From the NCBI GenBank assembly GCA_964483175.1, contig CAZAAT010000001.1:7292-71291 (forward strand): 64,000 nucleotides of DNA, read 5' to 3'. Of the stretch, positions 637 through 63,964 are shown one piece after another (the first letter of the stretch is position 1; every line of letters starts with the position of its first letter). A program made the position numbers and the translations under genes. This DNA comes from an uncultured Bacilli bacterium (GTDB lineage Bacteria; Bacillota; UBA5301). Under the pieces are notes generated by a model, which did not search any database, was not told where the DNA came from, and was given only the letters and a program-made list of their open reading frames with translations.

Positions 637-662
637 CCGTAGAAATATAGGGGGTAACATTT

Positions 663-28391: not shown

Positions 28392-28432
28392 TTTTAACTC
28401 CACCAACCTTGCCAGTTATACCCAATTATACA

Positions 28433-30278: not shown

Positions 30279-30279
30279 A

Positions 30280-33089: not shown

Positions 33090-33093
33090 AGGC

Positions 33094-33477: not shown

Positions 33478-33489
33478 TAATACCTCCGT

Positions 33490-34599
33490 TTACGATCTTT
33501 TTGTATATGGTTGAACAAATGGGACCGAAACTACTTGGGCTTCAACCAGTTTTTCGCGGATCTTGACCCAAATCCTACTTCCCGGCTCTGAATAGGGAAG
33601 GGTTACATAACCAAGGCCGATATTCTCCTCCAAAGTTGGTGCGAAAGAACCACTGGTTACCGACCCAATAACCTCCGCAGAACTATTTAAGATTTCATAT
33701 CCGTGACGGCAGACACCCCGCCCGATCATTTTGAACCCAATCAAAGATCTAGAAAGACCTTCTTCTTTCTTGGCGACTAACGCTTTTTTACCGATAAAAT
33801 CGCCTTTATCTAATTTCACCGTCCAACCCAAACCGGCTTCCCACGGGCTTATTTCCTCAGTCAACTCCTGGCCGTACAACGGATAAGCCAATTCTAAACG
33901 CAAGGTGTCCCGGGCCCCGAGTCCAACGGGCACAAGCCCGGTACCAGCACCGGCCTGCCTCAGCTCTTGCCAGAGAAAGCTTGCATCAGCTGCATCGACA
34001 TATAGCTCAAAACCGCGCTCCCCGGTATAGCCAGTTGCCGAAATCATGGCCGGCCGACCAGCCACCCTGCCCTCGACAAACGAATAGAACTTTAATTGGG
34101 AGAGATCCTCAGAACAAAGCTTGCCTAAAATCTCCTCGCTCTTGGGGCCTTGGATCGCTAACAAGGCGGTTTCGGCCGACTGGTTAACCAAATTAACGCC
34201 GGTACTCGGCAAATAATTGGCGAACCACTCCCAATCCTTGTCGGTATTGGCTGCATTAACCACCACCAGATACCGTTCACGATCGTAGCAATAGACAATG
34301 AGGTCGTCGACGACCCCACCATTTTCAGTACAGACTAAATTATACTGCGCCTTACCTGGCATCAACTTTGCCAGGTTGTTGGTCAAAAGTCGGTTCAAAT
34401 AATCATAAGCTCCCGGCCCTGATACATAGAATTCACCCATATGTGAAAGATCAAACAGTCCTGCGCTATTACGTACCGCCCGATGCTCCTCTAGGATCGC
34501 GGTATATTGAACCGGCATTTCCCAACCGCCAAAAGGAATCATCTTGGCTTTTAGGCCCACATGTTCTGCATAAAGCGGAGTTCTTTTCCATTCAGACAT
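33490..34599 (-). CDS. gcvT: Glycine cleavage system T protein (aminomethyltransferase)
   Basis: 369 aa with the GcvT fold. RBS GGAGG 8 nt before ATG. Confidence 0.9.
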   Translation of the reverse strand: MSEWKRTPLYAEHVGLKAKMIPFGGWEMPVQYTAILEEHRAVRNSAGLFDLSHMGEFYVSGPGAYDYLNRLLTNNLAKLMPGKAQYNLVCTENGGVVDDLIVYCYDRERYLVVVNAANTDKDWEWFANYLPSTGVNLVNQSAETALLAIQGPKSEEILGKLCSEDLSQLKFYSFVEGRVAGRPAMISATGYTGERGFELYVDAADASFLWQELRQAGAGTGLVPVGLGARDTLRLELAYPLYGQELTEEISPWEAGLGWTVKLDKGDFIGKKALVAKKEEGLSRSLIGFKMIGRGVCRHGYEILNSSAEVIGSVTSGSFAPTLEENIGLGYVTLPYSEPGSRIWVKIREKLVEAQVVSVPFVQPYTKRS

Positions 34600-40026: not shown

Positions 40027-41526
40027 TTATCTAAGCAATAGGCAAGATAGTATTATCGCTACCGTAGCAGACCAGGCTGAGGCGATCAGATTAACCCAAT
40101 TATTATTTAGCCACCGCAATCCCTTGACAGCCTTGGTTTGACAACCACAGCCATGGATCAACTTCTCGGTATACTTTAAGCAGTATTCGCAATAATACTG
40201 AACTTGCAGGGTCGCACCGATCAGACTGTCCAATAATGCCCCACTCACCCCGGCCACGAAAACTATGGCTGTCCCGATCAAGGTTGATCCCCAATTAAGA
40301 CCACCGATTATACTGAGAACAAATCCGCTCAAAGCCAAAATTCCACTGCCAAAGACAGACCCCCAGATGCCAGCTTTGGTAATACCCCCGGACGTCCCGG
40401 GCAGTACTTCTTTACGAGAGGTTATCAGCCGGGGTTTCCCCCCTAGGGCCTGTCCAATCTCGGTTGCCCAGGTATCAGCGGTTACACCGGCTAGAGAGCC
40501 TAAAAATCCAAGATACAGTAGATATAGATCAGCTATATTCAGAAAGGACAGAATTGCTAAGACGATGCCAATTCCCCCGTTGGCTAAGACCTGATTAACA
40601 CCTCTGCGTGTATCCGTTCTATCTTCGATCTCATCTGAGCTACGCCGGCGACTCCAATAACTCAAGATACTAGAAGAAACGAAGAAAACTAAGATCGGCG
40701 GAATCCAATTCCAGCCACCAAAGGTGTACAGAAAAGAACCGACCAAAATGGCCCCGGCGACCCCGCCTTCATCGAGTGCCTTGAGCCAATAAGCAAGAAG
40801 CGAGAACAGAAAACTCCCGACGATCCCGGTTACAAAGACACTAATTTGTGCAATCGGAATGTTCGTTTGAATTAAATAATAGAGGAAAAACGCTGTTCCC
40901 ACCGGGACAATAAAATTATCGGTCCCGCGTATACTGACCGCTTCGAGTAATGCGGCAAACGCTGAAGTTAAAGTGACATAACTGATTAATTCTTGGTCGG
41001 AGAGCCCCATTATTTGAGCAGCGACAACTGCCAATGCTCCCCAGGAGCCGGCGAACATACCAAGGGTGCCTTCCCAGCTCTTCGTTTCGTCATAGATAAA
41101 ATATTTATGTTTACCCCAGTAACTACCGATTAGCGCAGCTAGGGTATCGCCCCAGCCAAAAACTAATAGCCCGGCGATGGCATAAACCTGCTGATCTTTT
41201 CCCCAGAAAAGGTTAAACAAAAAGATAATGGCGAGAAAAATATAGACGATGCCGAATACACTTTGTCGCTGGCTGGCGCTCTTTAATCCGCTCCCAACAG
41301 CCAAGTAGATCAGGCCAAAAATTCCGGGGGCGATGATAAACCAGTGCCATTCGGAAAATAATGGCGGCAAAATCAGCGCGCTGCTGGCTAGGCCGATAAT
41401 CGTCAAGCGACGAACCATTAAGGAGCTCAGGCGAAACCAAATTCGCAGTAACTCGGCTCCCAATAATACTATGACAAAATAGAATAAACTAACAACAACT
41501 GCAACCGCACTATTTAAGGACATCAA
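40027..41526 (-). CDS. Polytopic membrane protein: CTP-dependent prenol-kinase/CdsA-like N-terminal half fused to a DUF92 (TMEM19-like) C-terminal half, ending in a Cys-x2-Cys...Cys-x-Cys motif
   Basis: 499 aa with about 12 TM helices. N-terminal half has FGWGDTLAALIGSYWGKHKY (CdsA/VTE5/dolichol-kinase-like). C-terminal half has DUF92 hallmarks ADTWATEIG and PGTSGGITKAG, then CEYC...CGC. Confidence 0.45.
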   Translation of the reverse strand: MMSLNSAVAVVVSLFYFVIVLLGAELLRIWFRLSSLMVRRLTIIGLASSALILPPLFSEWHWFIIAPGIFGLIYLAVGSGLKSASQRQSVFGIVYIFLAIIFLFNLFWGKDQQVYAIAGLLVFGWGDTLAALIGSYWGKHKYFIYDETKSWEGTLGMFAGSWGALAVVAAQIMGLSDQELISYVTLTSAFAALLEAVSIRGTDNFIVPVGTAFFLYYLIQTNIPIAQISVFVTGIVGSFLFSLLAYWLKALDEGGVAGAILVGSFLYTFGGWNWIPPILVFFVSSSILSYWSRRRSSDEIEDRTDTRRGVNQVLANGGIGIVLAILSFLNIADLYLLYLGFLGSLAGVTADTWATEIGQALGGKPRLITSRKEVLPGTSGGITKAGIWGSVFGSGILALSGFVLSIIGGLNWGSTLIGTAIVFVAGVSGALLDSLIGATLQVQYYCEYCLKYTEKLIHGCGCQTKAVKGLRWLNNNWVNLIASAWSATVAIILSCLLLR

Positions 41527-42191
41527 ATACCACTCTTTTCTGTCAACAGTTGCGCAAAATGCTTTAAAATATCGGCAAAAGTCTCGTATGGTACATAGCT
41601 AATCCCTTGCTCCTGACAGTAGCGGGCCAATGTTCCCTTGGCATATACCAGATCCGCCTCTTTGACAGCACATTCATCGCTAATCCCATCACCGATGTAA
41701 ACAATAAACCAATTCTGCCCTTTGCGGGCAGTTACAATCTGCTTTTTGCAAGTCCCACATTTGCCGCATTCCAAGTTTTCGTAAGGATGGGTAAACACAA
41801 CACCCTGAGGCCCCACCTCAACGGTGTTGGCATAGAAGACTAAGTCCTGCAGCCCGGTGCGCTCCAAATAGTCCTCAATATAAATATTCATACCGTCGCT
41901 GATGATTTCTAACGGTACATCATGCTCGCTGCAATAACGCACAAACTGAGGGAAAAATGGATCTGGGCGAACATTCTCGCGAAGATACTCGATAATCTCC
42001 TGAGTACTGTAAGCTCCAAAGTTGCGATAAATAACCGGCAGATACTGGCGTGATTTGCCGCCAGCCTCGAGAATGGCGTATTCTTTTTCTCGCCAATAGG
42101 CATCCGCAAACTTATCCAGTAATTTGACCTGGTTATCATCAAGCGTTATCGTCCCATCAAAATCGCTATATACCCAATATGGTTTGGCCAC
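41523..42191 (-). CDS. HAD-IB family phosphatase, MtnX-like (2-hydroxy-3-keto-5-methylthiopentenyl-1-phosphate phosphatase family)
   Basis: N-terminal HAD motif I VYSDFDGTIT, motif IV IGDGISDECAVKEADLVYAKG, and Cys cluster CGKCGTCKKQ as in Bacillus MtnX. Confidence 0.55.
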   Translation of the reverse strand: MAKPYWVYSDFDGTITLDDNQVKLLDKFADAYWREKEYAILEAGGKSRQYLPVIYRNFGAYSTQEIIEYLRENVRPDPFFPQFVRYCSEHDVPLEIISDGMNIYIEDYLERTGLQDLVFYANTVEVGPQGVVFTHPYENLECGKCGTCKKQIVTARKGQNWFIVYIGDGISDECAVKEADLVYAKGTLARYCQEQGISYVPYETFADILKHFAQLLTEKSGI

Positions 42192-42211: not shown

Positions 42212-42997
42212 CTACTGATTATAGGTGTATATTCCAAAGAGTTCAGCTACATTCTGATTAACCTGTTCGCGTAGTTCTGGTTCTGAAATTCCCTTGATGC
42301 TAGCCAGTTTCGTCAATATGGCGGGCACGAATTTTGGCTCATTTCGTCTGCCGCGGTACGGAACCGGCGCCAAATACGGTGAGTCGGTCTCCAGCAGAAT
42401 GCTTTCAAGCGGTACTGCTCGCGCCACCTCAACCGGTTTTTTCGCATTTTTAAAGGTTACAGTCCCCCCGATTCCGATATAGTAGCCCAACTTTACACAT
42501 TCCGCAGCCAACTCCGGGCTACCGGAAAAACAGTGCAATACGCCTCGCACCACCCCTTGGAATTCCTTGAGGATTTCAAGCGTATCGGCATGAGCCTCCC
42601 GATTATGAATTATCACCGGCAGACCTTTTTCCGAAGCCAGGGCCATCTGATCGCGAAAAACCGCCAACTGCGTCTCTCGGGGGGAGAAGTTGTAATAATA
42701 GTCCAACCCGATCTCCCCAATAGCAACCACTTTTTCGTTGGCAGCCAGCTCGCTCAGGGATAATCGTGTTTCCTGATCGTAACTACTGGCCTCATGGGGA
42801 TGAACCCCCACAGCAGCAAATAAGCCCGGATACTGTTGGGCCTGAACAATCGCCCGACGTGAAGTAACAAGGTCTGAGCCGGGAATCACAATTTGGCTCA
42901 CCCCGGCAGCGGCGGCTTCCCTGACAACCTCCTGCCAATCAACGGCAAACTGCTCATCGTTCAGATGGGCATGGGTATCGGCCAAAGGGGTGGTCAT
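42212..42997 (-). CDS. tatD: TatD-family metal-dependent hydrolase (DNase)
   Basis: N-terminal DTHAHLND and the conserved His/Glu/Asp ligands. 261 aa. Follows metG as yabD does in Bacillus. Confidence 0.85.
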   Translation of the reverse strand: MTTPLADTHAHLNDEQFAVDWQEVVREAAAAGVSQIVIPGSDLVTSRRAIVQAQQYPGLFAAVGVHPHEASSYDQETRLSLSELAANEKVVAIGEIGLDYYYNFSPRETQLAVFRDQMALASEKGLPVIIHNREAHADTLEILKEFQGVVRGVLHCFSGSPELAAECVKLGYYIGIGGTVTFKNAKKPVEVARAVPLESILLETDSPYLAPVPYRGRRNEPKFVPAILTKLASIKGISEPELREQVNQNVAELFGIYTYNQ

Positions 42998-44916
42998 TTC
43001 ACCCGTCCCCCAGAAGGAATCTCCCTTTCTGGAGTAATCAGAGCTAACTGGTCATCACTGGAGGCGGCCAAGAGCATTCCCTGTGAAAGCTCACCGCGAA
43101 GTTTGGCCGGTTTAAGATTGGCAACAATCACGATCTCTTTGCCGACCAACTCCTCCGGCTTGTAGTGTTCGGCGATACCAGCCACAATCTGGCGCTGCTC
43201 CGGTCCGACCTGGACTTGAAGCTTTAACAATCTATCCGCATTAGGATGCTGCTGGGCCTGGATTATTTTGGCTACCCGTAGATCAATCTTAGCAAAATCG
43301 TCAATGGTGATTTCTTCTTTGAGGTCGGTCAAGGTCTGCGGTGCTTCTGCCTCCATCGGCGTTTCCTCCTCTGCTACTGTCTCCGCCTCAACCCGTGGAA
43401 AGAGAGGCGGGCCCTGAATAATCTTGTTTCCTGCCGGATAGCCCCCCCAAGATTCAAGTTGACTAAAACGATAGTCCTGAACGCTACCGGCAAGCCCCAA
43501 TAGCCCCCACATTTTGTCCGCGGTTGAAGGCATTAGTGGCCCGATTAGCACCGCCACTTGGCGAAGCGTTTCGAATAGAGTATACATTACCGTCGCCAGT
43601 CGTTGACGATCCGTTTTGGCCAACACCCAGGGGGCTGATTCATCGATGTATTTGTTAGCGGCGGCGATCAACCGCCAGACCTCGGCAACGGCTTGGTTGA
43701 TCTCGAGGTTGTCAAATAAAGTCCGGTAGTTGTCCAGCACCTCTCGGGATAGCGTTTGCAGCTTGCGATCAAGATCCTGATATTCACCGGACTCAGGAAC
43801 GATAAAATCAAAGTATTTACCCAGCATTGCGGTTGATCGATGTAGCAGATTGCCCAAGTCATTGGCCAGATCTGAATTCAACCTTTTGATTAGAGCTTCA
43901 CGTGAGAAGTGGCCATCACTACCGAAAGAGATTTCGCGGAGCAAGAAGTAGCGGAGCGGATCAGCTCCAAATTCGTTAATCAGCTCAATCGGGTCGATGA
44001 CATTGCCCTTGGACTTGGACATCTTGCCACCGTCTAAGACCAGCCACCCATGGCCAAAGACGGTCTTGGGAAGCGGCAAATCCAAGGCCATCAACATAAT
44101 CGGCCAAATAATCGTGTGAAACCGCATAATCTCCTTGCCAACCAGATGGAGATCGGCCGGCCAAAACTGAGCAAAGCGCTCCGCATCTTGATATATACCG
44201 GCGGAAGTCACATAGTTTGAAAGAGCGTCAAACCAGACATAGATCACATGCCCCTCGTCAATTGGGACAGGAATTCCCCAATCAAAGGTAGTTCTGGAAA
44301 TACACAGATCCTCGAGGCCACTCTTAATAAAGGCAACCATCTCATTTTTACGGGACTCCGGCCGGATAAACTCCGGATGAGTCTCAATATGCTCCAGAAG
44401 GCGATCCGCGTATTTGGACAGCCGGAAAAAGTAGGACTCTTCTTTGGTTAACTCCACCGGTCTTTGGCAATCGGGGTTCGGGCACTTACCATCGACCAAT
44501 TGTCGCTCCAACCAGAAGGTTTCACAAGGAGTGCAATACCACCCCTCATATTCGCTCTTGTAAATATCGCCCTTCTCCCAAATCCGCCGGAAGATCTCTT
44601 GGACTACCTTCTGATGTCGGGGCTCGGTGGTCCGAATAAAATCGTCGTATGAGATATCAAGCAATCTCCACAGCTCTTTGAAACTATCAACAATAGGATC
44701 AACATACTCAATGGGAGTAGCCCCTTTTTCCTTGGCTTTGCGTTCAATTTTCTGGCCATGCTCATCTGAGCCGGTCATAAACAAAACCTTGTATCCGCTC
44801 ATTCGGCGATACCGGGCTATCACATCGGCGATAGTAGTAGTATAGGAGTGGCCGATATGCAGCTTATCACTGGGATAGTAAATTGGTGTGCTTAGACAAT
44901 ACGTCTTCTCCGACAT
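42994..44916 (-). CDS. metG: Methionine--tRNA ligase with C-terminal tRNA-binding (EMAP-like) domain
   Basis: HIGH motif PIYYPSDKLHIGH, KMSKS motif, zinc knuckle CTPCETF...CPNPDC, and C-terminal tRNA-binding domain. Confidence 0.95.
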   Translation of the reverse strand: MSEKTYCLSTPIYYPSDKLHIGHSYTTTIADVIARYRRMSGYKVLFMTGSDEHGQKIERKAKEKGATPIEYVDPIVDSFKELWRLLDISYDDFIRTTEPRHQKVVQEIFRRIWEKGDIYKSEYEGWYCTPCETFWLERQLVDGKCPNPDCQRPVELTKEESYFFRLSKYADRLLEHIETHPEFIRPESRKNEMVAFIKSGLEDLCISRTTFDWGIPVPIDEGHVIYVWFDALSNYVTSAGIYQDAERFAQFWPADLHLVGKEIMRFHTIIWPIMLMALDLPLPKTVFGHGWLVLDGGKMSKSKGNVIDPIELINEFGADPLRYFLLREISFGSDGHFSREALIKRLNSDLANDLGNLLHRSTAMLGKYFDFIVPESGEYQDLDRKLQTLSREVLDNYRTLFDNLEINQAVAEVWRLIAAANKYIDESAPWVLAKTDRQRLATVMYTLFETLRQVAVLIGPLMPSTADKMWGLLGLAGSVQDYRFSQLESWGGYPAGNKIIQGPPLFPRVEAETVAEEETPMEAEAPQTLTDLKEEITIDDFAKIDLRVAKIIQAQQHPNADRLLKLQVQVGPEQRQIVAGIAEHYKPEELVGKEIVIVANLKPAKLRGELSQGMLLAASSDDQLALITPEREIPSGGRVK

Positions 44917-44919: not shown

Positions 44920-45441
44920 TTAGACCTCCTTATCACCTACAGCATCTTCGGAAAATCGCCGGATGAACCAGGCAAAAAACAGACCAGATAGCAAGGTCAG
45001 CACGGCAAAGGTCGTCAGCTTAAATAAAATGCCCCCTGACTCGATGGTCAAGTACCCGTACATCGCCGATCCACCAAGATCATACACCAAAGCCAGTAGA
45101 GCCAAGCCTAGCTGGGCTAAAGCCACCTGTCCCTGGCCGCGCGCTTGAAAGTACTGTTGAATTAGAGCCGCACCCGAACCGAAAATCACTGCCATCGCAA
45201 CCATCACATCAACGGGGATGCCGAAAATGGCAAATCCCTCGGCCTGATAAGACCAGAATCCTTGCAGGTAAGCGATGATTTCAAAGGGCAGGCGCACTAC
45301 GAAGAAGATCAGTCCGGTAGCCCAAATCCCCTGCTTCTCTACTGAAGAAAGCTTCTCCCGCTTAATTAATAAGTACACGACCAAAATGCTAATTGCAAGG
45401 GTTCGCACTCGAAAACCTGAAAATCCTGACAACCAGCTCAT
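44920..45441 (-). CDS. Hypothetical integral membrane protein (5 TM)
   Basis: 173 aa. Stop is 3 nt before the metG start, so the metG RBS lies inside it and the two are co-transcribed. Confidence 0.5.
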   Translation of the reverse strand: MSWLSGFSGFRVRTLAISILVVYLLIKREKLSSVEKQGIWATGLIFFVVRLPFEIIAYLQGFWSYQAEGFAIFGIPVDVMVAMAVIFGSGAALIQQYFQARGQGQVALAQLGLALLALVYDLGGSAMYGYLTIESGGILFKLTTFAVLTLLSGLFFAWFIRRFSEDAVGDKEV

Positions 45442-45453: not shown

Positions 45454-46779
45454 TTATGATCGTGATTCAACCACCGTCAAGACATCATCCAAGGCGGAGA
45501 CCAATTGATCTACGTCGTCCTTGGTAATGACCAATGGCGGCTGAAAAGCCAATACGTTACGGTCGATTCCGTTTTTCCCAATTAATATGCCACGATCTTT
45601 TAGTTGCTCGAGGATCAAATCCGTCTCCTCGCTCGCCGGTACTTTAGCAGGATCGTTTTTATCTTTCACCAGTTCGGCCCCTACCATTAACCCTAATCCG
45701 CGAATATCCCCGATGAGCCTGTGTTTCTCGGCCAAACCGCTAAGCTGCTCACGCAAATATCCGCCAAGCTCGGTCGCTCTAGCCGCTAAGTTCTCTTCGA
45801 TAAGATAATCAATCACTGCCAGACCAGCTGTTGCGGAAACAGGGTTGCCACCCAAGGTGGAAGCCCCCGGCCGGGTATAACTCTTGGCGATCTCATCGGT
45901 AGTAATGAATGCGCTTATTGGTGCTCCATTGCCCAAGGCCTTGGCCACAGTCATAATATCGGGAGCGACATCCCAGTGCTCGATGGCAAACATCTTACCG
46001 GTACGGGCAAACCCGGTTTGCACCTCATCTACGATTAAGAGGATCCCGTACTTGTCCAGAATCTCCCGCACTCGTTCAAAGTAACCAGGCGGAGGGGTAA
46101 TAATGCCTCCATTACCTTGAATCGGCTCGACAAACATCGCCGCGACCTCGCGGGAGGTCTGGGTTTGAATAGCCCTTTCAACAGCATCAGCACACTTAAG
46201 ATCACACCCCGGATAGCTTAAGCCTAATGGGCAGCGGTAACAGTAAGCATTCGGAACAAAGCTGATCCCACCAACCGGATTGAGGTCGGTCCGCCACATC
46301 GATAAGCCGGTCAGGCTCATCGTAAACGACGTCCGCCCGTGCAAACCCTGCTGGAGCGCTAAAAACTCATACCTTTTAGTATGCAATTTAGCCAAGACCG
46401 CCGCTCCGTCATTGGCCTCACTGCCGGTAGAACAGAAAAAGCTGCGTTTCAAGTTGCCAGGGGTTACTTGCGCCAACCGTTCGGCAAGATTAACAATCGG
46501 CTCAGTCAGATAAATGTTACAGACATGTTGGAGCGTCTGAACCTGCTCGCCAACCCGATCAGTGATCACCGGGTTGCAGTGTCCGCAGTTAATTACCGAT
46601 ACCCCGGCATAAAAATCAAGGTACTGGCGGCCTTCATGATCGTAGACATACTGCATATCACCTTTAACTAGTTGCATCGGTTCGGCGTAAAAGTGATATA
46701 AGCACGGAATTAAATACTCCTGTTTTTTGCGGAGAATCTCCTCCGGACCTAGATAGCTCATGGTACCTCTCCTCCCCAA
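45454..46779 (-). CDS. Class-III pyridoxal-phosphate-dependent aminotransferase (omega-/GABA-/acetylornithine-aminotransferase family)
   Basis: 441 aa; PLP-lysine region DEVQTGFARTGKMFA and GSEANDGA motif. Confidence 0.8.
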   Translation of the reverse strand: MGRRGTMSYLGPEEILRKKQEYLIPCLYHFYAEPMQLVKGDMQYVYDHEGRQYLDFYAGVSVINCGHCNPVITDRVGEQVQTLQHVCNIYLTEPIVNLAERLAQVTPGNLKRSFFCSTGSEANDGAAVLAKLHTKRYEFLALQQGLHGRTSFTMSLTGLSMWRTDLNPVGGISFVPNAYCYRCPLGLSYPGCDLKCADAVERAIQTQTSREVAAMFVEPIQGNGGIITPPPGYFERVREILDKYGILLIVDEVQTGFARTGKMFAIEHWDVAPDIMTVAKALGNGAPISAFITTDEIAKSYTRPGASTLGGNPVSATAGLAVIDYLIEENLAARATELGGYLREQLSGLAEKHRLIGDIRGLGLMVGAELVKDKNDPAKVPASEETDLILEQLKDRGILIGKNGIDRNVLAFQPPLVITKDDVDQLVSALDDVLTVVESRS

Positions 46780-46786: not shown

Positions 46787-48775
46787 TTATCTTAAACCGA
46801 CAACACCCCTGGGATAAGCCCCTAAACCCAACGGACGAGGTGCTTGACGCACAAAATCACGGATCAGCTCGGATTGCTCAGCCATTGTTCCGGAATAAAC
46901 CGCATCCAAAACTCGTCTGTAAGCTGAAACAATCGGACCAACTTCGGCAGAATCGGTAAAGTGAAGTTCTAGTCGCAAACTAGCTACTTTTAATTTGGCA
47001 AATGACTCCAAAAAGGGCAGGACACAAAGGTCATTGGCCAATAAGAAATGGTTGCGACAATACTGGTCAATCACGACCTCGCGGCGTCCCCCCCGAATGT
47101 CTTTCAAGGCATATCGGCGCTGGCGACAGAGGGTAGAGCAGATATCCTGCTTGGTCAAGCCCTCAAGTAGAGCTGCCGGCAGACAATGTTCCATCACCAT
47201 GGTGGTCAATCTGCCGTGAGCCAAGACTTCAATGGGCAGCTCCGAATCGGCCGCGAGCTCTTTGAGCTGAGCAAAAGAGCTCTCTATCTGTGCTGTTACT
47301 TGGACTACCCCTGCTTCTTTGAGCAATTCCAGGGCCTTTTGGTTAAATGCATTGAGCGAATAATCCCCGTAAATCGGTAACTGTGTCAGCTGTTTTGTCA
47401 ATTGAAGAGTTCCGACATTAGAGACCATTACTCCTGCCGGTCTCAGCTCCCCAAGCCCCTCAAGCCACTCCAGCAAAACTTGAAGTTCAGCGATTTCGCG
47501 CGACATCGTAATCCTCGGAGTGACCACAATACCCGGTACCTTTGCTTGAGCCAGCAATTGGAGGGCAGTAGTCATGTTCTTTTTCGACCAAGCAAAATCA
47601 AGATCAACCGGAGACTCTCCGCCAAAATAAACCCGGTCGGCTCCGGCCGCGATTGCAGATTCGAGAGCCTCTAAATCACTCACCCGCACTGATAACACGG
47701 GTTTAGCTGCTAGTTCATCATCTTGCACCTGCTTGGCAAAGGGGTCTTTGGTGAGCAGACGCTCGTCGATGGTCAACTCTTTAACCCCGGTACTAAAAAA
47801 CTGAGGCTCTTTCGCTCCGGTATAGCCAATTCCTACTGGCCCCGGGTGTTTTAAGGCATAGCAGGTGGTAAAATCCCGCACTTGGATTTTGTTCATCCGT
47901 TCCTGTAACTCACAATCAAGTCGGTATGCGAATGGTTCTCGTAGGTAAGAATCCAACGCTTGCCGATAAACCGAGACGATCTCCGCTAAAAACTCGGCTT
48001 CCCGCATTCTCCCTTCAATCTTAAAGGAACAGATTCCGGAGTGAACCAATTCCGGAATGTGGTTTAGCACATACATATCGCCCAAGGCCAAAAAGTACGG
48101 GCCATCGGCCTTGGTCTGCAAAACCTCAGCGGTCCGGGCATCAATGAACTCATAGGCCCAGCGACACGGTTTCATACAGCGGCCGCGGTTAGAGCTCTGC
48201 CCTAATAGTAAGCCACTAGCATAACATTGGCCGCTTTGGGCGATACACATATCCCCATGAATAAAATACTCAATCTCCAAACCGGATTCATCTCGTAACT
48301 TAGCAATCTCCGAAAAAGGAATCTCCCGGTTTAATACCACCCTGGTAACGCCATGTTCCTTTAGGAAATTAAGCATTGGCAAGCTATGCGAGTTCAGCAT
48401 CACACTGGCATGCAACGGTACCGTTAACCCAATCTGATTGGCCAGTTTGATTAAGCCCAAATCTTGCACAATCAGCGAATCGGGCTGGGCTTCCTCTAAA
48501 AATTCGAGATACTCCTGCTGCTCTTGGAGTTCCTGATCGCTGTGCAAGTTGTTTACGGTCACATAAACCTTGACATTGCGTGCGTGGGCATAAGCGATCG
48601 CCTCGGTCAAACTTTCATTAGTGAAGTTATAATCATCGCGGAACATCCGCATGTTAAACTTCTTGCCACCCAAGTAAACCGCATCTGCTCCAGCAGCTAT
48701 TACCGCCTCCAGAACATCCCACCGCCCTACCGGCGCCAATAGTTCTAGTTCGGAACTTTTTAGATTTATCGCCAC
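46787..48775 (-). CDS. Peptidase U32 family protein (double-domain collagenase/RlhA-TrhP-like)
   Basis: U32 signatures (E-x-F-x2-G-[SA]-[LIVM]-C-x4-G-x-C-x-[LIVM]-S-like region ...GQCYASGLLLGQSSNRGRCMKPCRW). The start is reassigned to GTG 48775, which has GAAGGAAGG 8 nt upstream, because the longer ORF-track start at 48844 overlaps the upstream gene by 70 nt. Confidence 0.75.
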   Translation of the reverse strand: MAINLKSSELELLAPVGRWDVLEAVIAAGADAVYLGGKKFNMRMFRDDYNFTNESLTEAIAYAHARNVKVYVTVNNLHSDQELQEQQEYLEFLEEAQPDSLIVQDLGLIKLANQIGLTVPLHASVMLNSHSLPMLNFLKEHGVTRVVLNREIPFSEIAKLRDESGLEIEYFIHGDMCIAQSGQCYASGLLLGQSSNRGRCMKPCRWAYEFIDARTAEVLQTKADGPYFLALGDMYVLNHIPELVHSGICSFKIEGRMREAEFLAEIVSVYRQALDSYLREPFAYRLDCELQERMNKIQVRDFTTCYALKHPGPVGIGYTGAKEPQFFSTGVKELTIDERLLTKDPFAKQVQDDELAAKPVLSVRVSDLEALESAIAAGADRVYFGGESPVDLDFAWSKKNMTTALQLLAQAKVPGIVVTPRITMSREIAELQVLLEWLEGLGELRPAGVMVSNVGTLQLTKQLTQLPIYGDYSLNAFNQKALELLKEAGVVQVTAQIESSFAQLKELAADSELPIEVLAHGRLTTMVMEHCLPAALLEGLTKQDICSTLCRQRRYALKDIRGGRREVVIDQYCRNHFLLANDLCVLPFLESFAKLKVASLRLELHFTDSAEVGPIVSAYRRVLDAVYSGTMAEQSELIRDFVRQAPRPLGLGAYPRGVVGLR

Positions 48776-49662
48776 TATCGATACCTTCCTTCGATGATCT
48801 CGGCCTCTGGAATTGCCTTGAGATCTAGCTTTAACCGGTCGCAAGTTACCCGATTGAGATAAACCCGAGGGTTATCCGGTAATTGGATGGGGAGCTCCGC
48901 GGGGTCCTCTCCATGTAGAATCCGGGCGGCAATTTTACCAGCCTGGTATCCCAGTTCTGATAAGGGAGCTTCTACACAGCAAGCCGCTCCAGCAAGCACC
49001 GCTGTTAGATTATGGCCACAAAGGGGAATACCCTGGGCTACGCAGTTTCCGGCCAATTCAGGTAAATGTTCTTCGAGCATCCGGCCGATGGTAGCAAAGA
49101 CGAATTGGCAATCCGGCAAGAACTCCATGTTGGCTAAGACCGCGGGATTTTGTACCTTAACCGGAGTGACGATGATTCCCTGCTCAGTAGCGACCTGGCG
49201 TAAGTCATTCAGCTCCAATACTGAGTTAGGGTCATCAGGATCATAAACCACTGAAAAATGGGTCAATCCCGGTACTAGACTCTGCATCGCCGCTAGTTTC
49301 CGCTCGGCATCAACCTTACCGCTGACCCCGCCCAAATGGTTCCCAGATCTTTCCCAGCTATCAACTAAGCCGACCGAGACCGGATCATACACCGGCGTGA
49401 ATACAACCGGAATCCCGTAAAATTCAGCCGCTTCCTTGGCGAATTTGGCTGCCGGGGTTGTACACGCAAAAATTAAATCAACACCTTGAGCGACGAGATC
49501 ATCGGCCTCTTGTCCAAAACTTGGCACATTTTCTTCTACATTGCGATAATCAAAAGTAACCTCTGCTGAGGCAAATCCGGACTCAGATAGTCCTTTTTTA
49601 AACCCTTCCACCGCTTCATCAAGTTCTGCTTTGAGCTGAAGAATTCCTATGGTTACACCCAT
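48775..49662 (-). CDS. PF04392-type (ABC_sub_bind) solute-binding-protein homologue lacking any signal peptide
   Basis: MGVTIGILQLKAELDEAVEGFKKGL...TTPAAKFAKEAAEFYGIPVVFTPVYDPVSVGLV matches the ABC_sub_bind family core. ATG at 49662 has GGGGGGAG upstream; the ORF-track N-terminal extension is not hydrophobic either. Stop UAG overlaps the U32 GTG start. Confidence 0.6.
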   Translation of the reverse strand: MGVTIGILQLKAELDEAVEGFKKGLSESGFASAEVTFDYRNVEENVPSFGQEADDLVAQGVDLIFACTTPAAKFAKEAAEFYGIPVVFTPVYDPVSVGLVDSWERSGNHLGGVSGKVDAERKLAAMQSLVPGLTHFSVVYDPDDPNSVLELNDLRQVATEQGIIVTPVKVQNPAVLANMEFLPDCQFVFATIGRMLEEHLPELAGNCVAQGIPLCGHNLTAVLAGAACCVEAPLSELGYQAGKIAARILHGEDPAELPIQLPDNPRVYLNRVTCDRLKLDLKAIPEAEIIEGRYR

Positions 49663-49711
49663 ATGCTCCCCCCCAATATACGATATCACTGGTATACCTT
49701 GCCTGGTAGGC

Positions 49712-49740
49712 ATTATATCACTGCCCGACGGGCCTTTCAA
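49712..49740 (-). promoter_or_regulatory. Sigma-A-type promoter for the minus-strand binding-protein/U32/aminotransferase/metG operon
   Basis: Minus-strand TTGAAA-17 nt-TATAAT, about 45 nt upstream of the RBS of the 49662 start. Confidence 0.5.
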
Positions 49741-51100: not shown

Positions 51101-52687
51101 ATGCGCTTAGCGACAGTTGCTCAAATTCTTGCCAGACACCAGCTACTCGTGGGTGCTGCCGATCTTGATCTGCCGGATCTGGAAATCACTGCGATCAAAA
51201 CCGACTCTCGAGCAGTAACACCTGGCTCGCTTTTTATTGCCATTGCCGGACTGCAATATGACGGGCATGATTTTATCAATCAAGCTATTCAAAATGGAGC
51301 CGCGGCAATTGTCTGCGAGAAACCTGTCCATATACCCGTTCCAACGCTCACCGTAGTTAATTCTCGACAAGCCTCAGCGATCCTCTCCGCATTTTGGTGG
51401 GGAAATCCGGCTGATGATCTTATCTGTATCGGAGTAACCGGCACCAACGGTAAGACAACAACTTCATTTATGATCGATGCCATCTTGGAGGAAGCCGGAT
51501 ATACCACCGGAATAATCGGTACCATTATCACCAAGATTGGCCACCGCCTAACCGAATCTAAGATGACAACCCCTGATCCCTGGGACTTGGCGCATCTACT
51601 TCATCATCTCGTTGAACAACAGGCTGAAGTGGTCACGATGGAAGTATCCTCTCATGCCATTACCCAAGATCGTTGCTTTGGCTTAGCCTTTCAAATCGGG
51701 ATCTTAACCAATATCTCTCCAGATCATTTCGACTTGCATTCCGGCTTGAACGAGTATATCCAGGCCAAAGCAGACTTCTTTAAGCTGGTCGACCCTCAGG
51801 GACGAACACTGGCCAATGGCGACGATCCGCTAGTCCGCCAAGCGCTAGCTGTCGGCTCAGCACAAAACCCGATATTTTTCGGACTATCATCTGACTGCCA
51901 AATCCGGGGAGAAGACCTCGTAATCAACTCTACCGGATCGAGCTTTACCTTGCTCTGGAATGACCTGACCGGCATCGGAGGCAACCCAATTCCAGCCGAT
52001 TCACTACTGGTCAGCCTCAAGATGCCCGGCCGTCACAATGTTTATAACGCCATCGCCGCCGCCGCAACCGGTTTGCTGTTAGGAATCCGCCCCACCGTAA
52101 TCAAACGGGCCTTGGCTACCTTCTCCGGGGTAGCACGGAGGTTGCAATACATCTATCAGGGAGATGTCTCGATCATCGATGATTTTGCCCATAATCCCGC
52201 TAGTTTGCAAGCAGCTATTGCCGCTTGTTCGCCACTCGCCTCCCGCCAGCTGATTTTGGTACACGCCATCCGTGGCAACCGAGGGGTAAGCATCAACCGA
52301 CAAAATGCAGAGGCGATTGCAGCCAGTATCAAACAGAAGAACCTTCCTGTAAAATGCATCCTAACCGCCAGTGAAGATGTCGTAACAGAGCAGGACCGCG
52401 TCAGCCCGGATGAAAAACAAGTCTTTTTTGACACATTTCAGCAAGCTAAGGTGCCGTATCGCTATTATCCGAAACTCCGTCACGCCTTGGATAGTGCGCT
52501 TGCCAGTGCTGCTCGAGGGGACGTCATTTTGCTGTTGGGGGCCCAAGGCATGAATGCCGGCAACCGCCTTTTTCACCAGATTGCCGCGGATCACCCCCAA
52601 ATCGCAATAGCCGACCCTTATGATGAACTATCCAGTGAGCCGGCTATCATCGCAATCCCAGATTATCTTCAATTAACTAGTCATTAG
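51101..52687 (+). CDS. Mur-ligase family protein (MurE-like three-domain ADP-forming amide ligase paralog) outside the dcw cluster
   Basis: N-terminal MurE-type domain, central P-loop IGVTGTNGKTTTSFMI, C-terminal domain with HNPAS where MurE has DNPR/DNPA. 528 aa. Confidence 0.65.
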   Translation: MRLATVAQILARHQLLVGAADLDLPDLEITAIKTDSRAVTPGSLFIAIAGLQYDGHDFINQAIQNGAAAIVCEKPVHIPVPTLTVVNSRQASAILSAFWWGNPADDLICIGVTGTNGKTTTSFMIDAILEEAGYTTGIIGTIITKIGHRLTESKMTTPDPWDLAHLLHHLVEQQAEVVTMEVSSHAITQDRCFGLAFQIGILTNISPDHFDLHSGLNEYIQAKADFFKLVDPQGRTLANGDDPLVRQALAVGSAQNPIFFGLSSDCQIRGEDLVINSTGSSFTLLWNDLTGIGGNPIPADSLLVSLKMPGRHNVYNAIAAAATGLLLGIRPTVIKRALATFSGVARRLQYIYQGDVSIIDDFAHNPASLQAAIAACSPLASRQLILVHAIRGNRGVSINRQNAEAIAASIKQKNLPVKCILTASEDVVTEQDRVSPDEKQVFFDTFQQAKVPYRYYPKLRHALDSALASAARGDVILLLGAQGMNAGNRLFHQIAADHPQIAIADPYDELSSEPAIIAIPDYLQLTSH

Positions 52688-59574: not shown

Positions 59575-61500
59575 TCAGCTTCCTTTTTCTTCCCGCATAG
59601 CCGGACCGGCCAGCCGTCTATCCCCGACTCGCTTGGTCCATTTGATTCCGTCAAAATATTCTAGTAAAGCAATAGCATACTTGCGGCTACTATTGGTTCG
59701 GTCACGAAAATCAGCCGCATCAAAATTACCTTGTTCCTGCACCAGAGTTTTCGCCACCTCTTTGGCCACCGAAAGATTGGTCGTGTGAAAATAAAGATTA
59801 TCTGAAACTTTAACCAATACCTCACGCAGAATTAGGTAATTCAGAATCTCGTTTAAACTCTTTTCGGAGAGTTGGAATTCCGCGGCTACATCAACCAGAT
59901 TCGGCGGGGTTAAGCCACTGTTCAAAAACTCGGTACCAATCCGCTCAGCTAAAGCCGCTTCATCCGGGCTCAATTGCAGACCCTTGCCCGGCAATCCGAT
60001 CTCTTTATCATAAACAACGATCTCTCCCCGTTCGGCCCAGATGGCTAGCAGATTGCTGAAATGGCGGTTCTCCCAAGTCGGAACCAAGCGGCTCCGCAGT
60101 TCTTCTTTTGAATATCCCTTGCGCAAGGGATATTGTTCGTGAAACGCGTCTAAGAGATCCTTAGCCTCCGACCACAGCTCCTGTTCACCGCTGGAAAACA
60201 AGAATACTTGGTTATTCTCTAAATCGATAATCTCCTCTTGTCTAAGCAAGTTTCGTAGTTCTGTCCGGATCGTGGCAGGATCAAGTAAAGTTTTTTTCCT
60301 TAACCGCTCCCGGGTAAAAGTATCCCGTGGTGCACCCTCAAAAGCCAGGCGCAACAAATCAGCCGGATCACCGGCCTCTTCCCGGCGCAGAATCTCAGAA
60401 GTTTTGGGATTATTACGTTTCCAGCGTAGAGGATTGCTACTTAAAACCTTGCCTCCGCCAATGGTATGGGCTGGGGAGTAAGATCTGATTACAAAAAGAT
60501 CTCCTCTTGCTGCCACTATCGGCTCCTCAAAGATAATTTGACAATATCCTGAACCACCTGGCTCGATCTGGTCGGCTTCTAAAGTCCGCAATCTAGCTAA
60601 GACCTCGCTAGTGCCGATATGCACCCGAATCCGTTCTCGGTGGATAAGTTCTTTACCACTAGCCAGAACGGATATTTTGGCATCGATCATTTCCGTTGGT
60701 TCGATGACCTCAGGCTCTAAAATAACATCTCCCCGCTTGAGTTCGCTTTTTTCCACTCCGGTTAAGTTCAGGGCGACGCGATGGCCAGCACCGATTGACT
60801 CTACCGGCTCGTCATGAACCTGGATCTGACGGATCTTAGCCCGAACTCCAGCGGGCAGGATCTCCACTTCATCCTTAAGGTTAAGGGTGCCCCCAAGCAG
60901 AGTGCCGGTAACCACCGTGCCATGACCGGAGATTTGAAAGACTCGATCAATCGGCATCCGCAGCAATTTAGATGGCTCGCTTTTGGCCGCCTCAGCAACC
61001 ACCGACTCCACCTTGGCCAGAAGTTCTTGAACCCCTTCGCCTGTAACCGCGGAAACAGGCACCAACGGCGCCTCGGCCAGGCTCGTCCCGACCAATTGCT
61101 CGCGGATTTCCTCCTGAACCAGTTCAAGGAGTTCTTCATCAACAAGATCCATTTTGGTTACCGCCACAACCCCATATTTGACCTGAAGGATATCAATGAT
61201 ATCCAGGTGTTCTCTGGTTTGCGGCATTACTCCCTCATCAGCAGCCACCACCAGGATCACGACATCGATACTGCTAACCCCGGCTAGCATATTCTTAATG
61301 AAGCGCTCATGACCGGGAACATCAATGATCGCCGCGCGTTTTCCGCTAGGCAGAATAAAAGGGGCGAACCCCAAATCTATCGTTAGTCCGCGTTTCTGTT
61401 CCTCGGCCCATCTATCGGTGTTGATGCCGGTTATCGCCTTGACCAGGGTAGTCTTGCCATGATCAACGTGGCCGGCGGTACCGATAATAATCCTACGCAT
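59575..61500 (-). CDS. selB: Selenocysteine-specific translation elongation factor SelB
   Basis: GTPase N-terminus [17 protein letters not shown]-Tu-like domains II/III and C-terminal winged-helix SECIS-binding domains. 641 aa. Confidence 0.9.
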
Positions 61501-62913
61501 CTACTTACTTACCTCCCGGCTCTTACTGAGCAGACTTGCGATCACGGGAATTTCTTCATCAAAGATCGTCCGTGCACTAATTAGCAAGCGCTCCTGATTA
61601 AGCCGCCCGATGAGCGGCGGTGTTTGTTGACGTAACCATCTTTCAAGATGCAGCGGTGTTATCCAGGGCAAGGCCACGGAAACCGCTTTGCTCGGTATTT
61701 CGGTGCCAGGCAAAGACCCGCCGCCAGCCTCGGAAATGTCGTCAATTACTTCGACCATCGCATCTTGACCACAGTGTTGCCTGATCACCTCGGCCAATTT
61801 TTGCGCCCGTAACTCGACCACTTTTATGGGTTCGGTCAGCATCCGTAAGGTCGGGATCTGCTGGAGCGCTAGGCTGGGGACCAAATACAATTTAAGGGTT
61901 GCCTCCAGCGCCGCAAGGGTCATTTTGTCAATCCGCAATGCCCGAGTCAGTTGGTTTTGCTTAATTCGCTGAATCAAGTCGCGTTTACCGACGATAATCC
62001 CGGCTTGCGGTCCTCCCAAGAGCTTGTCTCCACTAAAAGTGACAATATCTACACCCGCCTGAACACTCTGCTGTACCGTAGGTTCAGCTGGAAGCCCGTA
62101 AGCCGCAAGGTCTACCAATACGCCGCTTCCTAGGTCTTCGATCAGCAATTTTCCCTGATTATGAGCAAGCTCTGCCAATTGCGCCAGATCAACCGAAGCA
62201 GTAAAACCTTGAATGCGGAAATTGCTCGTATGAACCTTTAAAATCACTTTGGTCTCAGGTGATATCGCCTCGGCATAATCCCTGAGGTGCGTCTTATTGG
62301 TAGTTCCAACTTCGCGCAAAATGGCTCCGCTGCGCGCCATTACCTCTGGAACCCTAAAGGATCCACCGATTTCAACTAGCTCACCCCGGGATACGATCGC
62401 CTCTCCGCCTTTGGCGAAGGTATCTAAGGCTAGCATAATGGCTGCGGCATTGTTGTTTACTACTAAGCCGGCCTCGGCTCCAGTAACCTGAACAAGTAAC
62501 TTTTCAACATGGGAATACCGCGATCCCCTCTCGCCTTCTGCTAGATCATACTCCAAATTAGAAAAAGATGCGGCGATTCGGCTTACTGCCGCCTGGGCTG
62601 TAGGAGCTAGCGGCGACCGGCCAAGATTGGTATGGATAATGACCCCTGTCCCATTAATCGCTGGTCGTAGATGCAAATCCTGCTCCCAGTTTGCAAAAAA
62701 TTCGGCCAGCCGACCATCCCAGCCCGTACTGTCATCCGGGACCTGGGCCAGTCCGGAAAGAACCTGCTGCCGCAGTTCACCAATGTATAGGCGGATCAGG
62801 TCCACCACCGCGTCGCGCTGCCAACGCTCGGCTTGTCTAACAGCAGAAGGCAATTCGAGCAGCTCATTAACTGGGGGAATACGTCGCAGTTGTACATTTG
62901 GCTCTTGTTCCAC
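61501..62913 (-). CDS. selA: L-seryl-tRNA(Sec) selenium transferase SelA
   Basis: 470 aa; PLP-lysine region ...DIVTFSGDKLLGGPQAGIIVGK... Abuts the selB start. Confidence 0.9.
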   Translation of the reverse strand: MEQEPNVQLRRIPPVNELLELPSAVRQAERWQRDAVVDLIRLYIGELRQQVLSGLAQVPDDSTGWDGRLAEFFANWEQDLHLRPAINGTGVIIHTNLGRSPLAPTAQAAVSRIAASFSNLEYDLAEGERGSRYSHVEKLLVQVTGAEAGLVVNNNAAAIMLALDTFAKGGEAIVSRGELVEIGGSFRVPEVMARSGAILREVGTTNKTHLRDYAEAISPETKVILKVHTSNFRIQGFTASVDLAQLAELAHNQGKLLIEDLGSGVLVDLAAYGLPAEPTVQQSVQAGVDIVTFSGDKLLGGPQAGIIVGKRDLIQRIKQNQLTRALRIDKMTLAALEATLKLYLVPSLALQQIPTLRMLTEPIKVVELRAQKLAEVIRQHCGQDAMVEVIDDISEAGGGSLPGTEIPSKAVSVALPWITPLHLERWLRQQTPPLIGRLNQERLLISARTIFDEEIPVIASLLSKSREVSK

Positions 62914-62917
62914 TTCC

Positions 62918-63964
62918 TTATCCCTCCAAGAACAGGGTCTTTGACTCTTGTTCGCAAAATTCGCCTACTACCGCAGCCGGAATGCCCTGATGTTGCAATG
63001 CCTGCAGCAGCGGTTGTTCCTGGTCAGCCGGGATGGCAAAGAGCAACCCACCTGAGGTCTGCGGGTCAGCGGCTAACTCGACATAAACTGGATCTACTGA
63101 GGAGGCAATCTCCATCCGCTCCTCAAAAAAATGAAGGTTGGCCATCAATCCGCCAGGCAAATAACCTTGCTTAGCATATTCAAACGCCCCAGGCAACAAC
63201 GGTAGCTGACTGGTAAAGATCTTAACACTGACATTACTACCTGCCGCCATCTCACCCAGATGCCCCAAAAAGCCGAATCCGGTAATGTCGGTACAGGCGC
63301 GAACAGAAAATTCGGCGGCGGTTTCGGCGGCTAGTTTATTAAGTGTAGCCATTGATTCTACCATCGCCTTGATATGCTCCGCATCTGCTTTGCCTTTTTT
63401 CACAGCTGTGCTAATAACCCCGGTTCCGAGTGGTTTGGTCAGGATTAAACGATCTCCCGGTCGAGCACCCGCATTAGACCATACCTTTTCCGGATGAACT
63501 ATCCCGGTAACCGCCAAACCGTACTTGGGCTCGTCATCTTGTACGGTGTGGCCGCCCAATAGCAATGCCCCCGCCTCCTGAACCTTCTCTGCCCCGCCAC
63601 GGAGAATCTCGCCGAGAATAGCCAGATCCAAGTTACACGGAAAGCAGACGATATTTAATGCTATCAAGGGACGACCACCCATCGCCCAGACATCGCTGAG
63701 CGAATTGGCCGCTGCAACCTGTCCATACCAATATGGATCATCTACAATCGGAGTAAAAAAATCTAACGTTTGCACTAAAGCTGTATTGTCGTCGAGCTTA
63801 TATACTGCGGCATCGTCTACAGTGTTAATTCCAACCAACACATTCTCATCGAAAGGTATTTGCGGTAAGTGGCGAAGCACTTGATCCAAGGCCCCTGGAC
63901 CAAATTTAGCTGCTCAACCAGCCTTCGATGAGAGCTGGGTCAATTTGACTTGTTCTACACTCAT
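62918..63964 (-). CDS. selD: Selenide, water dikinase SelD, itself a selenoprotein (in-frame UGA = Sec at 63914-63916)
   Basis: The ORF track begins at a TTG at 63889. Reading the same frame upstream gives MSVEQVKLTQLSSKAG-U-AAKFGPGALDQVL..., starting at ATG 63964 with AGGAGG 8 nt upstream. The single TGA sits exactly where E. coli SelD has GAG-C-GCK. AIR-synthase-like fold downstream. Confidence 0.85.
63883..63913 (-). promoter_or_regulatory. Candidate bacterial SECIS hairpin immediately 3-prime of the selD UGA codon
   Basis: mRNA UGA-GCAGCUAAAUUU-GGUCCA-GGGGCC-UGGAUC: a 6-bp stem (one G-U pair) with G-rich apical loop starting 12 nt after UGA, the spacing expected for SelB-dependent recoding. 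Confidence 0.4.

Follow-up and report, generated by a model that had tools for sequence, protein, structure and literature searches.

To our knowledge, the U32 enzymes are the only known hydroxylases for which an organic oxygen-atom donor has been proposed. Members such as UbiU/V, TrhP and RlhA are associated with O2-independent hydroxylations that require prephenate, and in the chemistry proposed for them the decarboxylative aromatisation of prephenate frees hydroxide and yields phenylpyruvate (PMC10990095). Direct hydroxylase activity of the U32 enzymes has not been demonstrated, an in vitro assay has not been developed, and the oxidant and possible helpers have not been identified (PMC10990095, PMC11574389). 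The solved members of the PF04392 (ABC_sub_bind) family of solute-binding proteins (SBPs) all bind aromatic amino acids, namely Phe, Tyr or Trp (PMC10443332, PMC6816091). Proteins of this family are ordinarily located outside the cell and pass aromatic amino acids to importers. The present analysis concerns a gene in which the two families meet: a PF04392 gene, followed by a tandem-U32 gene and a class-III aminotransferase gene, on a 64,000-nucleotide (nt) stretch of contig CAZAAT010000001.1 (assembly GCA_964483175.1) from an uncultured Bacilli bacterium of the lineage UBA5301, hereafter referred to as the window. The gene is best explained as encoding a cytoplasmic member of PF04392 that stopped serving an ATP-binding cassette (ABC) importer. 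The protein is proposed, with a probability of roughly 45%, to assist an O2-independent, fused UbiU/UbiV-like hydroxylase as an accessory subunit that binds a ligand, in the prenylquinone biosynthesis of anaerobic Bacillota; this quinone-hydroxylation role is unproven and is the best supported of the readings considered.

The assignment of the 295-amino-acid (aa) protein to PF04392, made in the original prediction, is borne out by Pfam (E = 1.7e-39; 136.2 bits against a gathering cutoff of 25.9; profile positions 13-278 of 293), and a chance explanation of a match at this level is excluded by a wide margin. Its score against the NCBIfam model of the tryptophan SBP TrpX lies far under the cutoff (117 against 390 bits). 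A model of the protein obtained with AF2 (AlphaFold 2) from an input of 18 orthologues has a pLDDT of 92.8 and a pTM of 0.88. Its best Foldseek match in the PDB is the open form of CD0873 (6hnj, TM-score 0.90), with further matches to 6hni, 3lft (SP1069) and 3lkv (VC_1101) at a probability of 1.00, while the identity to the solved PF04392 proteins is 22-24%. Structure prediction thus gives the protein, with confidence, the two-lobe class-I (cluster B) solute-binding fold. The gene begins at ATG 49662 with the N-terminus MGVTIGILQ, and a Shine-Dalgarno-like element stands 3 nt ahead of it. The predicted TTGAAA-17-TATAAT promoter upstream, with 11 of 12 matches and an extended -10 TG, is the top-scoring site in the 9.3 kb between 41000 and 50300; start, ribosome-binding site and promoter are as the original prediction described them. 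Rfam scans for a riboswitch or T-box leader, as a possible clue to the ligand, gave zero matches, at E<=0.1 for the window region and at gathering score for seven related loci.

The absence of an export signal was examined over all possible starts of the gene. The longest in-frame open reading frame (ORF) reaches 49803, where an upstream stop bounds it, and contains five candidate starts (49803, 49740, 49713, 49689 and 49662). Neither a hydrophobic stretch nor a lipobox was found after any of the five, in agreement with the earlier claim, and the maximum Kyte-Doolittle(11) value over the candidate N-termini is 1.3, at the first beta-strand of the mature fold. Alternative N-termini were rejected as the source of a signal peptide, since none of the five starts yields one and two of them, 49740 and 49713, fall within the promoter. 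The N-termini of all the 24 aligned orthologues, which come from very different lineages, have at most about 15 residues (in most 2-5) before an invariant IGILQL, or else a UbiX domain in that place. In a profile search for PF04392 relatives that covered 1.8 billion cluster representatives, the matches begin at residue 1-2 in this clade, as against residue 26-75 in ordinary single-domain PF04392 proteins (316-369 aa). The top-scoring PF04392 representatives of this search (P0247-P0254 and many others) are proteins of 600-1530 aa with two to five tandem PF04392 domains, an architecture quite unlike that of the single-domain lipoproteins and of the cytoplasmic clade alike.

In ten clusters of one lineage (P0006, P0007, P0009-P0015 and relatives), the domain follows a UbiX flavin prenyltransferase (PF02441) as a C-terminal fusion, forming proteins of ~505 aa, and this fusion independently puts the PF04392 domain in the cytoplasm. 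The cytoplasmic location of the 295-aa protein, as read from its sequence, may be regarded as well established, because no signal is present at any start. Scanning of the window ORFs revealed neither an ABC permease nor an ATPase, as previously noted, and no cognate permease or ATPase was seen beside the gene in over 100 related loci; such ABC systems as occur near these loci are unrelated, of the NMT1 or polar-amino-acid type, and are situated farther off (L006, L111, L009).

Conservation of the gene neighbourhood provides the second line of evidence. A search of 5.8 billion proteins identified 245 relatives of the binding protein at E<=1e-5, and the best 120 of the 245 are 286-321 aa long, except for the ~505-aa UbiX fusions. 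The neighbourhoods were compared in 101 distinct loci drawn from GTDB species genomes, JGI metagenomes and exact-protein look-ups. A tandem-U32 gene is the next gene in 83 of the 83 loci that have at least 2.1 kb of downstream sequence, and in all of the 75 loci where the downstream sequence reaches 3.6 kb or more, an aminotransferase gene comes after it, order and strand being the same throughout. The median identity to the window proteins is 67% for the aminotransferase, 45% for the U32 protein and 36% for the binding protein. The triad spans the Negativicutes, the window lineage and Syntrophomonadaceae-like metagenome-assembled genomes (MAGs) from soda lakes, its carriers including Sporomusa (six named species), Pelosinus, Propionispora/Propionispira, Methylomusa, Dendrosporobacter and Selenomonadales MAGs. 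When 774 ORFs from 59 loci were clustered all against all, only the triad was found to be common across the lineages. An obligate triad of binding protein, U32 protein and aminotransferase therefore appears well established at the level of gene order, with no exception in the loci that have room for it. The earlier proposal of a cytoplasmic partner for the U32/aminotransferase pair is strongly supported by this synteny. No description of the triad, or of PF04392 together with U32, was found in the literature searched, subscription literature being outside the search.

The U32 partner is identical to database entry P0121 and contains PF01136 twice, along with a sub-threshold Radical_SAM match. 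Its two halves are an internal duplication (27% identity, E = 4e-28). Among the NCBIfam models, the N-terminal half scores 191 bits with TrhP and 163 bits with UbiU, and the top match of the C-terminal half, a weak one, is UbiV (44 bits); the whole protein misses all the equivalog cutoffs (UbiU, 186 against 440; UbiV, 87 against 275; TrhP NF011996, 221 against 534). The motif C182-X6-C189-X15-C205-X3-C209 of the N-terminal half is conserved at 99-100% in 121 homologues and four Cys residues of the C-terminal half at 78-88% (numbered on the 667-aa translation from 48790, five codons upstream; the numbering of the 662-aa protein is lower by 5). A class of Fe-S hydroxylases that matches the Cys motif has been described (PMC10990095, PMC5727448). 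Because of the duplicated U-like and V-like halves and the conserved Cys residues, the protein resembles a U-type/V-type Fe-S pair and looks like a UbiU/UbiV-like pair fused in one polypeptide. Membership of the RlhA subfamily, which is defined by DUF3656 alongside U32 (PMC5727448), was ruled out by the absence of DUF3656 in the Pfam scan. Comparison of the U32 sequence with solved structures gave nothing at E<=0.001.

The third member of the triad belongs to the class-III enzymes that depend on pyridoxal phosphate (PLP), matching PF00202 over profile positions 11-403 of 403 (E = 1.5e-105, 353.7 bits). Its longest ORF begins at TTG 46779, and ATG 46761 was chosen as the start following the gene calls of the orthologues. 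The translation carries DEVQTGF...TVAKALGNG, within the AK motif of which the PLP-binding lysine presumably lies, as judged from the family. None of the NCBIfam functional equivalog cutoffs was reached, and the nearest solved relatives are an archaeal GABA-AT-like (gamma-aminobutyrate aminotransferase-like) enzyme, a phospho-lyase, GabT, dialkylglycine decarboxylase and several racemases.

The suggestion of a role in quinone biosynthesis comes from the genes that accompany the U32-aminotransferase pair in the relatives. The pair is found beside UbiA-type prenyltransferases in four arrangements, two of which also include UbiD and UbiX. The first, UbiD-UbiA(MqnP-like)-UbiX::binding protein-U32-aminotransferase, occurs in L006, L007, L014-L017, L065 and L109, and its UbiD is recognised by the model TIGR03701, 'menaquinone biosynthesis decarboxylase', with 661 bits against a cutoff of 496. 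The second, binding protein-U32-aminotransferase-UbiA, is seen in L058 and the third, UbiA-U32-aminotransferase without the binding protein, in L116. The fourth is that of the complete genome of Halothermothrix orenii (L111; CP001098, 1565374-1583377), in which genes for an NDH-2::DoxX fusion, FMN_bind, ApbE, a polyprenyl synthase, UbiD, UbiA, UbiX, U32 and the aminotransferase occur together without a PF04392 gene. The H. orenii block looks like a locus of the extracellular-electron-transfer type with its own quinone branch, and the NDH-2 fusion has been described as passing electrons to quinone (PMC2626281). An NMT1-type ABC importer is also present in this block, and the same NMT1-ABC trio is located after the aminotransferase in L006, L014 and L016.

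The hosts of the triad are of interest in this respect. In the part of PMC9430772 that cites Moller 1984, Sporomusa is reported to have ubiquinone and to be without menaquinone, and the presence of ubiquinone in Sporomusa is considered energetically puzzling (PMC9430772). Sporomusa, a strict anaerobe, carries the triad in loci L019, L023, L026, L033 and L037. A 2026 census found no genuine ubiquinone pathway in the Bacillota and many Bacillota without any predicted quinone pathway, and pointed to the possible existence of quinones not yet discovered (PMC13386864).

According to the proposed mechanism, the module would carry out a hydroxylation, without O2 and by chemistry of the prephenate-dependent type, in the making of a prenylated aromatic compound; the likeliest candidate for this compound is an isoprenoid-quinone head group of strictly anaerobic Bacillota. 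The binding protein would close on a small soluble ligand, possibly an aromatic ring precursor or an oxygen donor of the prephenate/arogenate type, and then dock to the hydroxylase, in a role analogous to that of the accessory UbiT beside UbiU/UbiV. The PLP enzyme may make or recycle an amino-acid or keto-acid partner, for example by turning phenylpyruvate into phenylalanine or prephenate into arogenate. In this scheme, the part played by the aminotransferase, the nature of ligand and substrate and the physical contact between the proteins are what we infer from the evidence above. A bolder formulation is considered doubtful: strictly anaerobic Bacillota would make a respiratory quinone head group by an unrecognised O2-independent route whose core consists of the three proteins of the module, with the SBP scaffold, recruited to the cytoplasm, presenting to the Fe-S hydroxylase a ring precursor, prephenate, or arogenate formed from prephenate by the PLP enzyme.

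Several observations weigh against a role in quinone hydroxylation. Most of the Negativicutes loci have no quinone gene as a neighbour of the triad within 10 kb, and UbiA, UbiD, UbiX and other quinone genes are absent from the window, as determined by tblastn and a Pfam scan of 30 further ORFs. We know of no role for a class-III aminotransferase in any quinone pathway. A PF04392 gene is missing from the clusters of H. orenii and L116 that have the link to quinone genes, and the binding protein is therefore regarded as an accessory and not a core component. The N-terminal half of the U32 protein scores slightly higher with TrhP than with UbiU, all these scores being far under the cutoffs. At least one member of the Sporomusaceae makes menaquinone-6 (PMC6315149). 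Finally, three motifs that 6hni, 3lft and 3lkv share, namely SD, (T/I)DN and VExG, have been replaced in the clade: G-x-S-D becomes G-x-S-G115, (T/I)-D-N becomes I-G-R194 and V-E-x-G becomes V-x-x-G (V-x-x-G-A). Owing to these replacements the ligand is unreadable from homology. The family motifs IGxxQ, N, (S/T)TPxA and DPVxxxLV are retained, ~40 residues are invariant in the clade, and C67, K122, E150 and E197 are clade-specific invariant residues. The residues E263 and Y279, which determine the specificity of CD0873 (PMC6816091), align with N218 and L234 of the binding protein. A keto acid, an aryl carboxylate or another anionic ligand without an amino group would be in keeping with the two acidic residues lost and the arginine gained.

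The occurrence of the triad alone in most loci, without membrane or prenyl genes, is also consistent with a soluble pathway of aromatic amino acids or aryl acids, in which Tyr or Phe is converted anaerobically into a hydroxylated ring precursor (4-hydroxybenzoate-like or homogentisate-like) or is catabolised; the aminotransferase would deaminate, the U32 protein would hydroxylate the ring, the binding protein would capture the substrate, and prenylation by UbiA would come later or never. The binding of Tyr, Phe and Trp by solved PF04392 proteins (PMC6816091, PMC10443332) agrees with such a pathway, as does the aminotransferase being the most conserved of the three proteins, as for a fixed small substrate, and the adjacency of UbiA is compatible with precursor supply. 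However, the motifs lost in the clade are those that the three solved binders of amino acids share, free soluble aromatic compounds are not a known substrate of any U32 enzyme, and class-III enzymes are usually omega-amine enzymes or racemases rather than enzymes of aromatic alpha-amino acids, so that a soluble pathway appears rather unlikely. Hydroxylation of a tRNA or rRNA base, in the manner of TrhP or RlhA, with the binding protein and the PLP enzyme supplying or processing a prephenate-derived co-substrate, is judged unlikely to a still greater degree. Both of the well-studied RNA hydroxylases are prephenate-dependent U32 proteins (PMC5727448, PMC6599085), TrhP is the top match of the N-terminal half, and the window module lies among the translation-related housekeeping genes rsmI, metG and tatD behind a strong, constitutive-looking predicted promoter. 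Yet the TrhP score of the whole protein is far under the cutoff, DUF3656 is absent, the housekeeping neighbourhood is limited to one lineage, and the linkage to UbiA, UbiD, UbiX and polyprenyl synthase, together with the UbiX fusion, has no rationale in RNA modification.

The original prediction had further tied the cytoplasmic partner to methionine or methylthio salvage, and in the window and its close relatives the genes from the binding protein to the MtnX-like phosphatase do lie close together, a strong terminator-like site being absent from the spaces between them. This idea fails because it is only in the near relatives of the window (L001-L004 and L011-L013; 7 of the 101 loci) that the triad is succeeded by metG, tatD and the HAD phosphatase, and metG is a neighbour by lineage-specific synteny, outside the conserved module. 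In L112 and L114, more distant members of this synteny block, the abrB...metG frame persists, with MurJ, MFS and further genes lying between the triad and metG. The HAD protein passes only the 'MtnX-like HAD-IB' subfamily cutoff and fails the MtnX equivalogs (131 against 292 and 120 against 303 bits), and no other salvage genes are present nearby; a part in methionine salvage is thus very improbable. As improbable is a transport component or sensor that relies on non-classical export or on an unlinked permease/ATPase, or that persists as a decaying relic. Membership of PF04392 speaks for it, and orphan SBP genes exist. But the domain is fused to the C-terminus of the cytoplasmic UbiX, ~100 orthologues have no signal, and the loci examined hold no cognate permease/ATPase within 10 kb, bar the unrelated systems mentioned above; against a relic argue the ~40 invariant residues and the confidently predicted fold. 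The quinone-hydroxylation role is retained as the preferred reading, at the probability stated at the outset.

The positions of the module and of its adjoining features appear in Table 1. The TAG stop of the binding-protein gene (48777-48775) and the GTG start of the U32 gene (48775-48773) have one G in common, as had been observed before, and this overlap of stop and start is also present in L001, L112 and L114. Downstream, the order is that originally reported: U32, class-III aminotransferase, a 173-aa ORF with five transmembrane segments, metG, tatD and the MtnX-like HAD-IB phosphatase, with successive gaps of 25, 12, 3, -4 and 20 nt from the U32 gene onward. The 173-aa ORF gave zero Pfam or NCBIfam matches and is present, co-directional with the triad, only in L001-L004 and L011-L013 besides the window; owing to this conservation limited to the window lineage, it is probably not part of the module core. 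metG is probably co-transcribed with the module. The order abrB-metG-tatD matches the Bacillus order around abrB and metS, and the triad looks inserted there.

Table 1. Positions in the window of the triad and its adjoining features (all on the reverse strand)
Feature	Position	Strand	Basis or remark
Predicted sigma-70-type promoter: TTGAAA 49740-49735, 17 nt, TG-TATAAT 49717-49712	49712..49740	(-)	motif scoring
Shine-Dalgarno-like GGGGGGGAG	49666..49674	(-)	sequence reading; ATG 3 nt downstream
PF04392 (ABC_sub_bind) protein, signal-less, 295 aa, predicted class-I solute-binding-protein fold	48775..49662	(-)	Pfam, AF2, Foldseek
Tandem-U32 Fe-S protein, 662 aa, GTG start	46787..48775	(-)	Pfam PF01136, two stretches, E 9e-101
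Class-III PLP aminotransferase-fold enzyme, 435 aa, ATG 46761 after GGAAGGAGAGGG	45454..46761	(-)	Pfam PF00202
Membrane ORF, 173 aa, ~5 transmembrane segments	44920..45441	(-)	hydropathy; no family
metG	42994..44916	(-)	3 nt after the 173-aa ORF

Other neighbours differ with the lineage. Neighbouring genes found only in the Negativicutes loci include those for electron-transfer flavoprotein (ETF) and a flavin adenine dinucleotide (FAD) oxidase of the lactate-dehydrogenase type, dnaE, which is the upstream neighbour of the triad, and a 99-aa membrane ORF. ETF alpha/beta and the FAD-linked oxidase, of the electron-bifurcating lactate-dehydrogenase type, flank the triad in L008, L018 and ~11 other Sporomusa-type loci, and a GlcD-like FAD oxidase and a CCG/Fe-S protein occur upstream of it in L058. 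The ETF/FAD-oxidase flanks could be coincidental synteny, or could reflect a link of the hydroxylase to an electron acceptor. A membrane ORF of 95-102 aa, convergent to the aminotransferase gene, is present in 23 Negativicutes loci (L009, 14597-14899 (-), and 22 others); it has no Pfam match and is unrelated to the 173-aa ORF of the window. L112 (GCA_050260635.1), labelled Betaproteobacteria bacterium, has the gene order of a spore-forming member of the Bacillota (spoIIIAA-like, tmk, holB, rsmI, abrB, triad, metG), and its taxonomic label is probably wrong.

Elsewhere in the window lies a gene for a 499-aa membrane protein (40027-42191 (-)) whose second half carries a DUF92/TIGR00297 domain. 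The start of this gene and the stop of that for the MtnX-like HAD-IB phosphatase overlap by 4 nt, a pairing kept in L001 and L004. On the opposite strand, a 528-aa Mur-ligase-family gene (51101-52687 (+)) is situated between rsmI and the PSP1/holB/tmk block and holds the same spot in L001, L004, L112 and L114. A row of selenocysteine genes (59575-63889 (-)) encodes SelB (641 aa), SelA (470 aa) and a SelD-like AIRS protein (323 aa). A one-carbon block (23575-34599 (-)) comprises MTHFR, a cobalamin-dependent methionine synthase (811 aa), a lipoate-protein ligase, a radical-SAM protein, a split glycine-cleavage P protein and the T protein, as well as two ORFs (26903-27592 and 29379-30278) with zero Pfam matches. 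At 13-3000 (+), a C-terminal fragment resembling phenylacetate-CoA ligase is followed by an indolepyruvate/arylpyruvate:ferredoxin oxidoreductase pair (TPP/POR and POR gamma); the arylpyruvate metabolism encoded there has no evident link to the triad.

If the bolder formulation given above is true, it would explain a ubiquinone-like benzoquinone in Sporomusa without a canonical Ubi hydroxylase, and would supply components that are possibly missing from in vitro assays of U32 hydroxylases. An invariant, coupled ligand-binding partner and a PLP enzyme are concrete candidates for the helpers of U32 enzymes, and the module may serve as a testable genetic handle on undiscovered quinones of the Bacillota and on the Sporomusa puzzle. 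The module is also a clean example of a transporter binding protein recruited inside the cell, flagged by a Rosetta-stone fusion.

Comparison with the known systems helps to place the module. The canonical PF04392 lipoproteins CD0873 (Tyr; 6HNI/J/K), SP1069/TrpX-type (Trp; 3LFT) and VC_1101 (Phe; 3LKV) belong to the same Pfam family and have the same two-lobe fold; unlike these, the window protein has no signal, lipobox or partner permease/ATPase, and its gene is followed by those of the U32 protein and the aminotransferase. Gram-positive loci for flavin-based extracellular electron transfer include Ndh2, PplA (FMN_bind), FmnB (ApbE) and DmkA/DmkB, with a quinone branch of their own. The H. 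orenii block is a dedicated-quinone locus of the same kind, and adds UbiD, UbiX and the U32-aminotransferase pair, while the window has none of the electron-transfer genes. TrhP (tRNA ho5U34) and RlhA (23S rRNA ho5C2501) share with the module protein the U32 domain and the conserved Cys cluster; the module protein differs in being a tandem U32-U32 protein without the middle domain of RlhA and in having other gene partners.

Cytoplasmic enzymes built on periplasmic-binding-protein folds act on chorismate or prephenate: the chorismate dehydratase MqnA, the prephenate dehydratase domain of PheA and cyclohexadienyl dehydratase. They provide a precedent for an intracellular binding-protein scaffold with ligands of the prephenate type, the resemblance being conceptual only; they have type-II folds and belong to other Pfam families, and their catalytic residues are not assignable in the window protein. 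The same type of reaction, decarboxylation/dehydration of a prephenate-type ligand, is proposed for oxygen donation to the U32 enzymes (PMC10990095). In the UbiU-UbiV-UbiT system for O2-independent ubiquinone hydroxylation in the Pseudomonadota (PMC10990095; 10.1101/2023.03.15.532739), there are two distinct U32 Fe-S domains, which here would be united in one polypeptide. The accessory UbiT has the SCP2 lipid-binding fold, whereas that of the module has the PF04392 periplasmic-binding-protein fold and the module includes no SCP2 protein. The module further differs in its invariant class-III PLP enzyme, its strictly anaerobic Bacillota hosts and its sub-cutoff UbiU/UbiV scores. Like the UbiUVT system, however, it encodes alongside the U32 domains a non-catalytic accessory for which a ligand-binding role is proposed here, and its relatives are associated in their genomes with UbiA, UbiD and UbiX.

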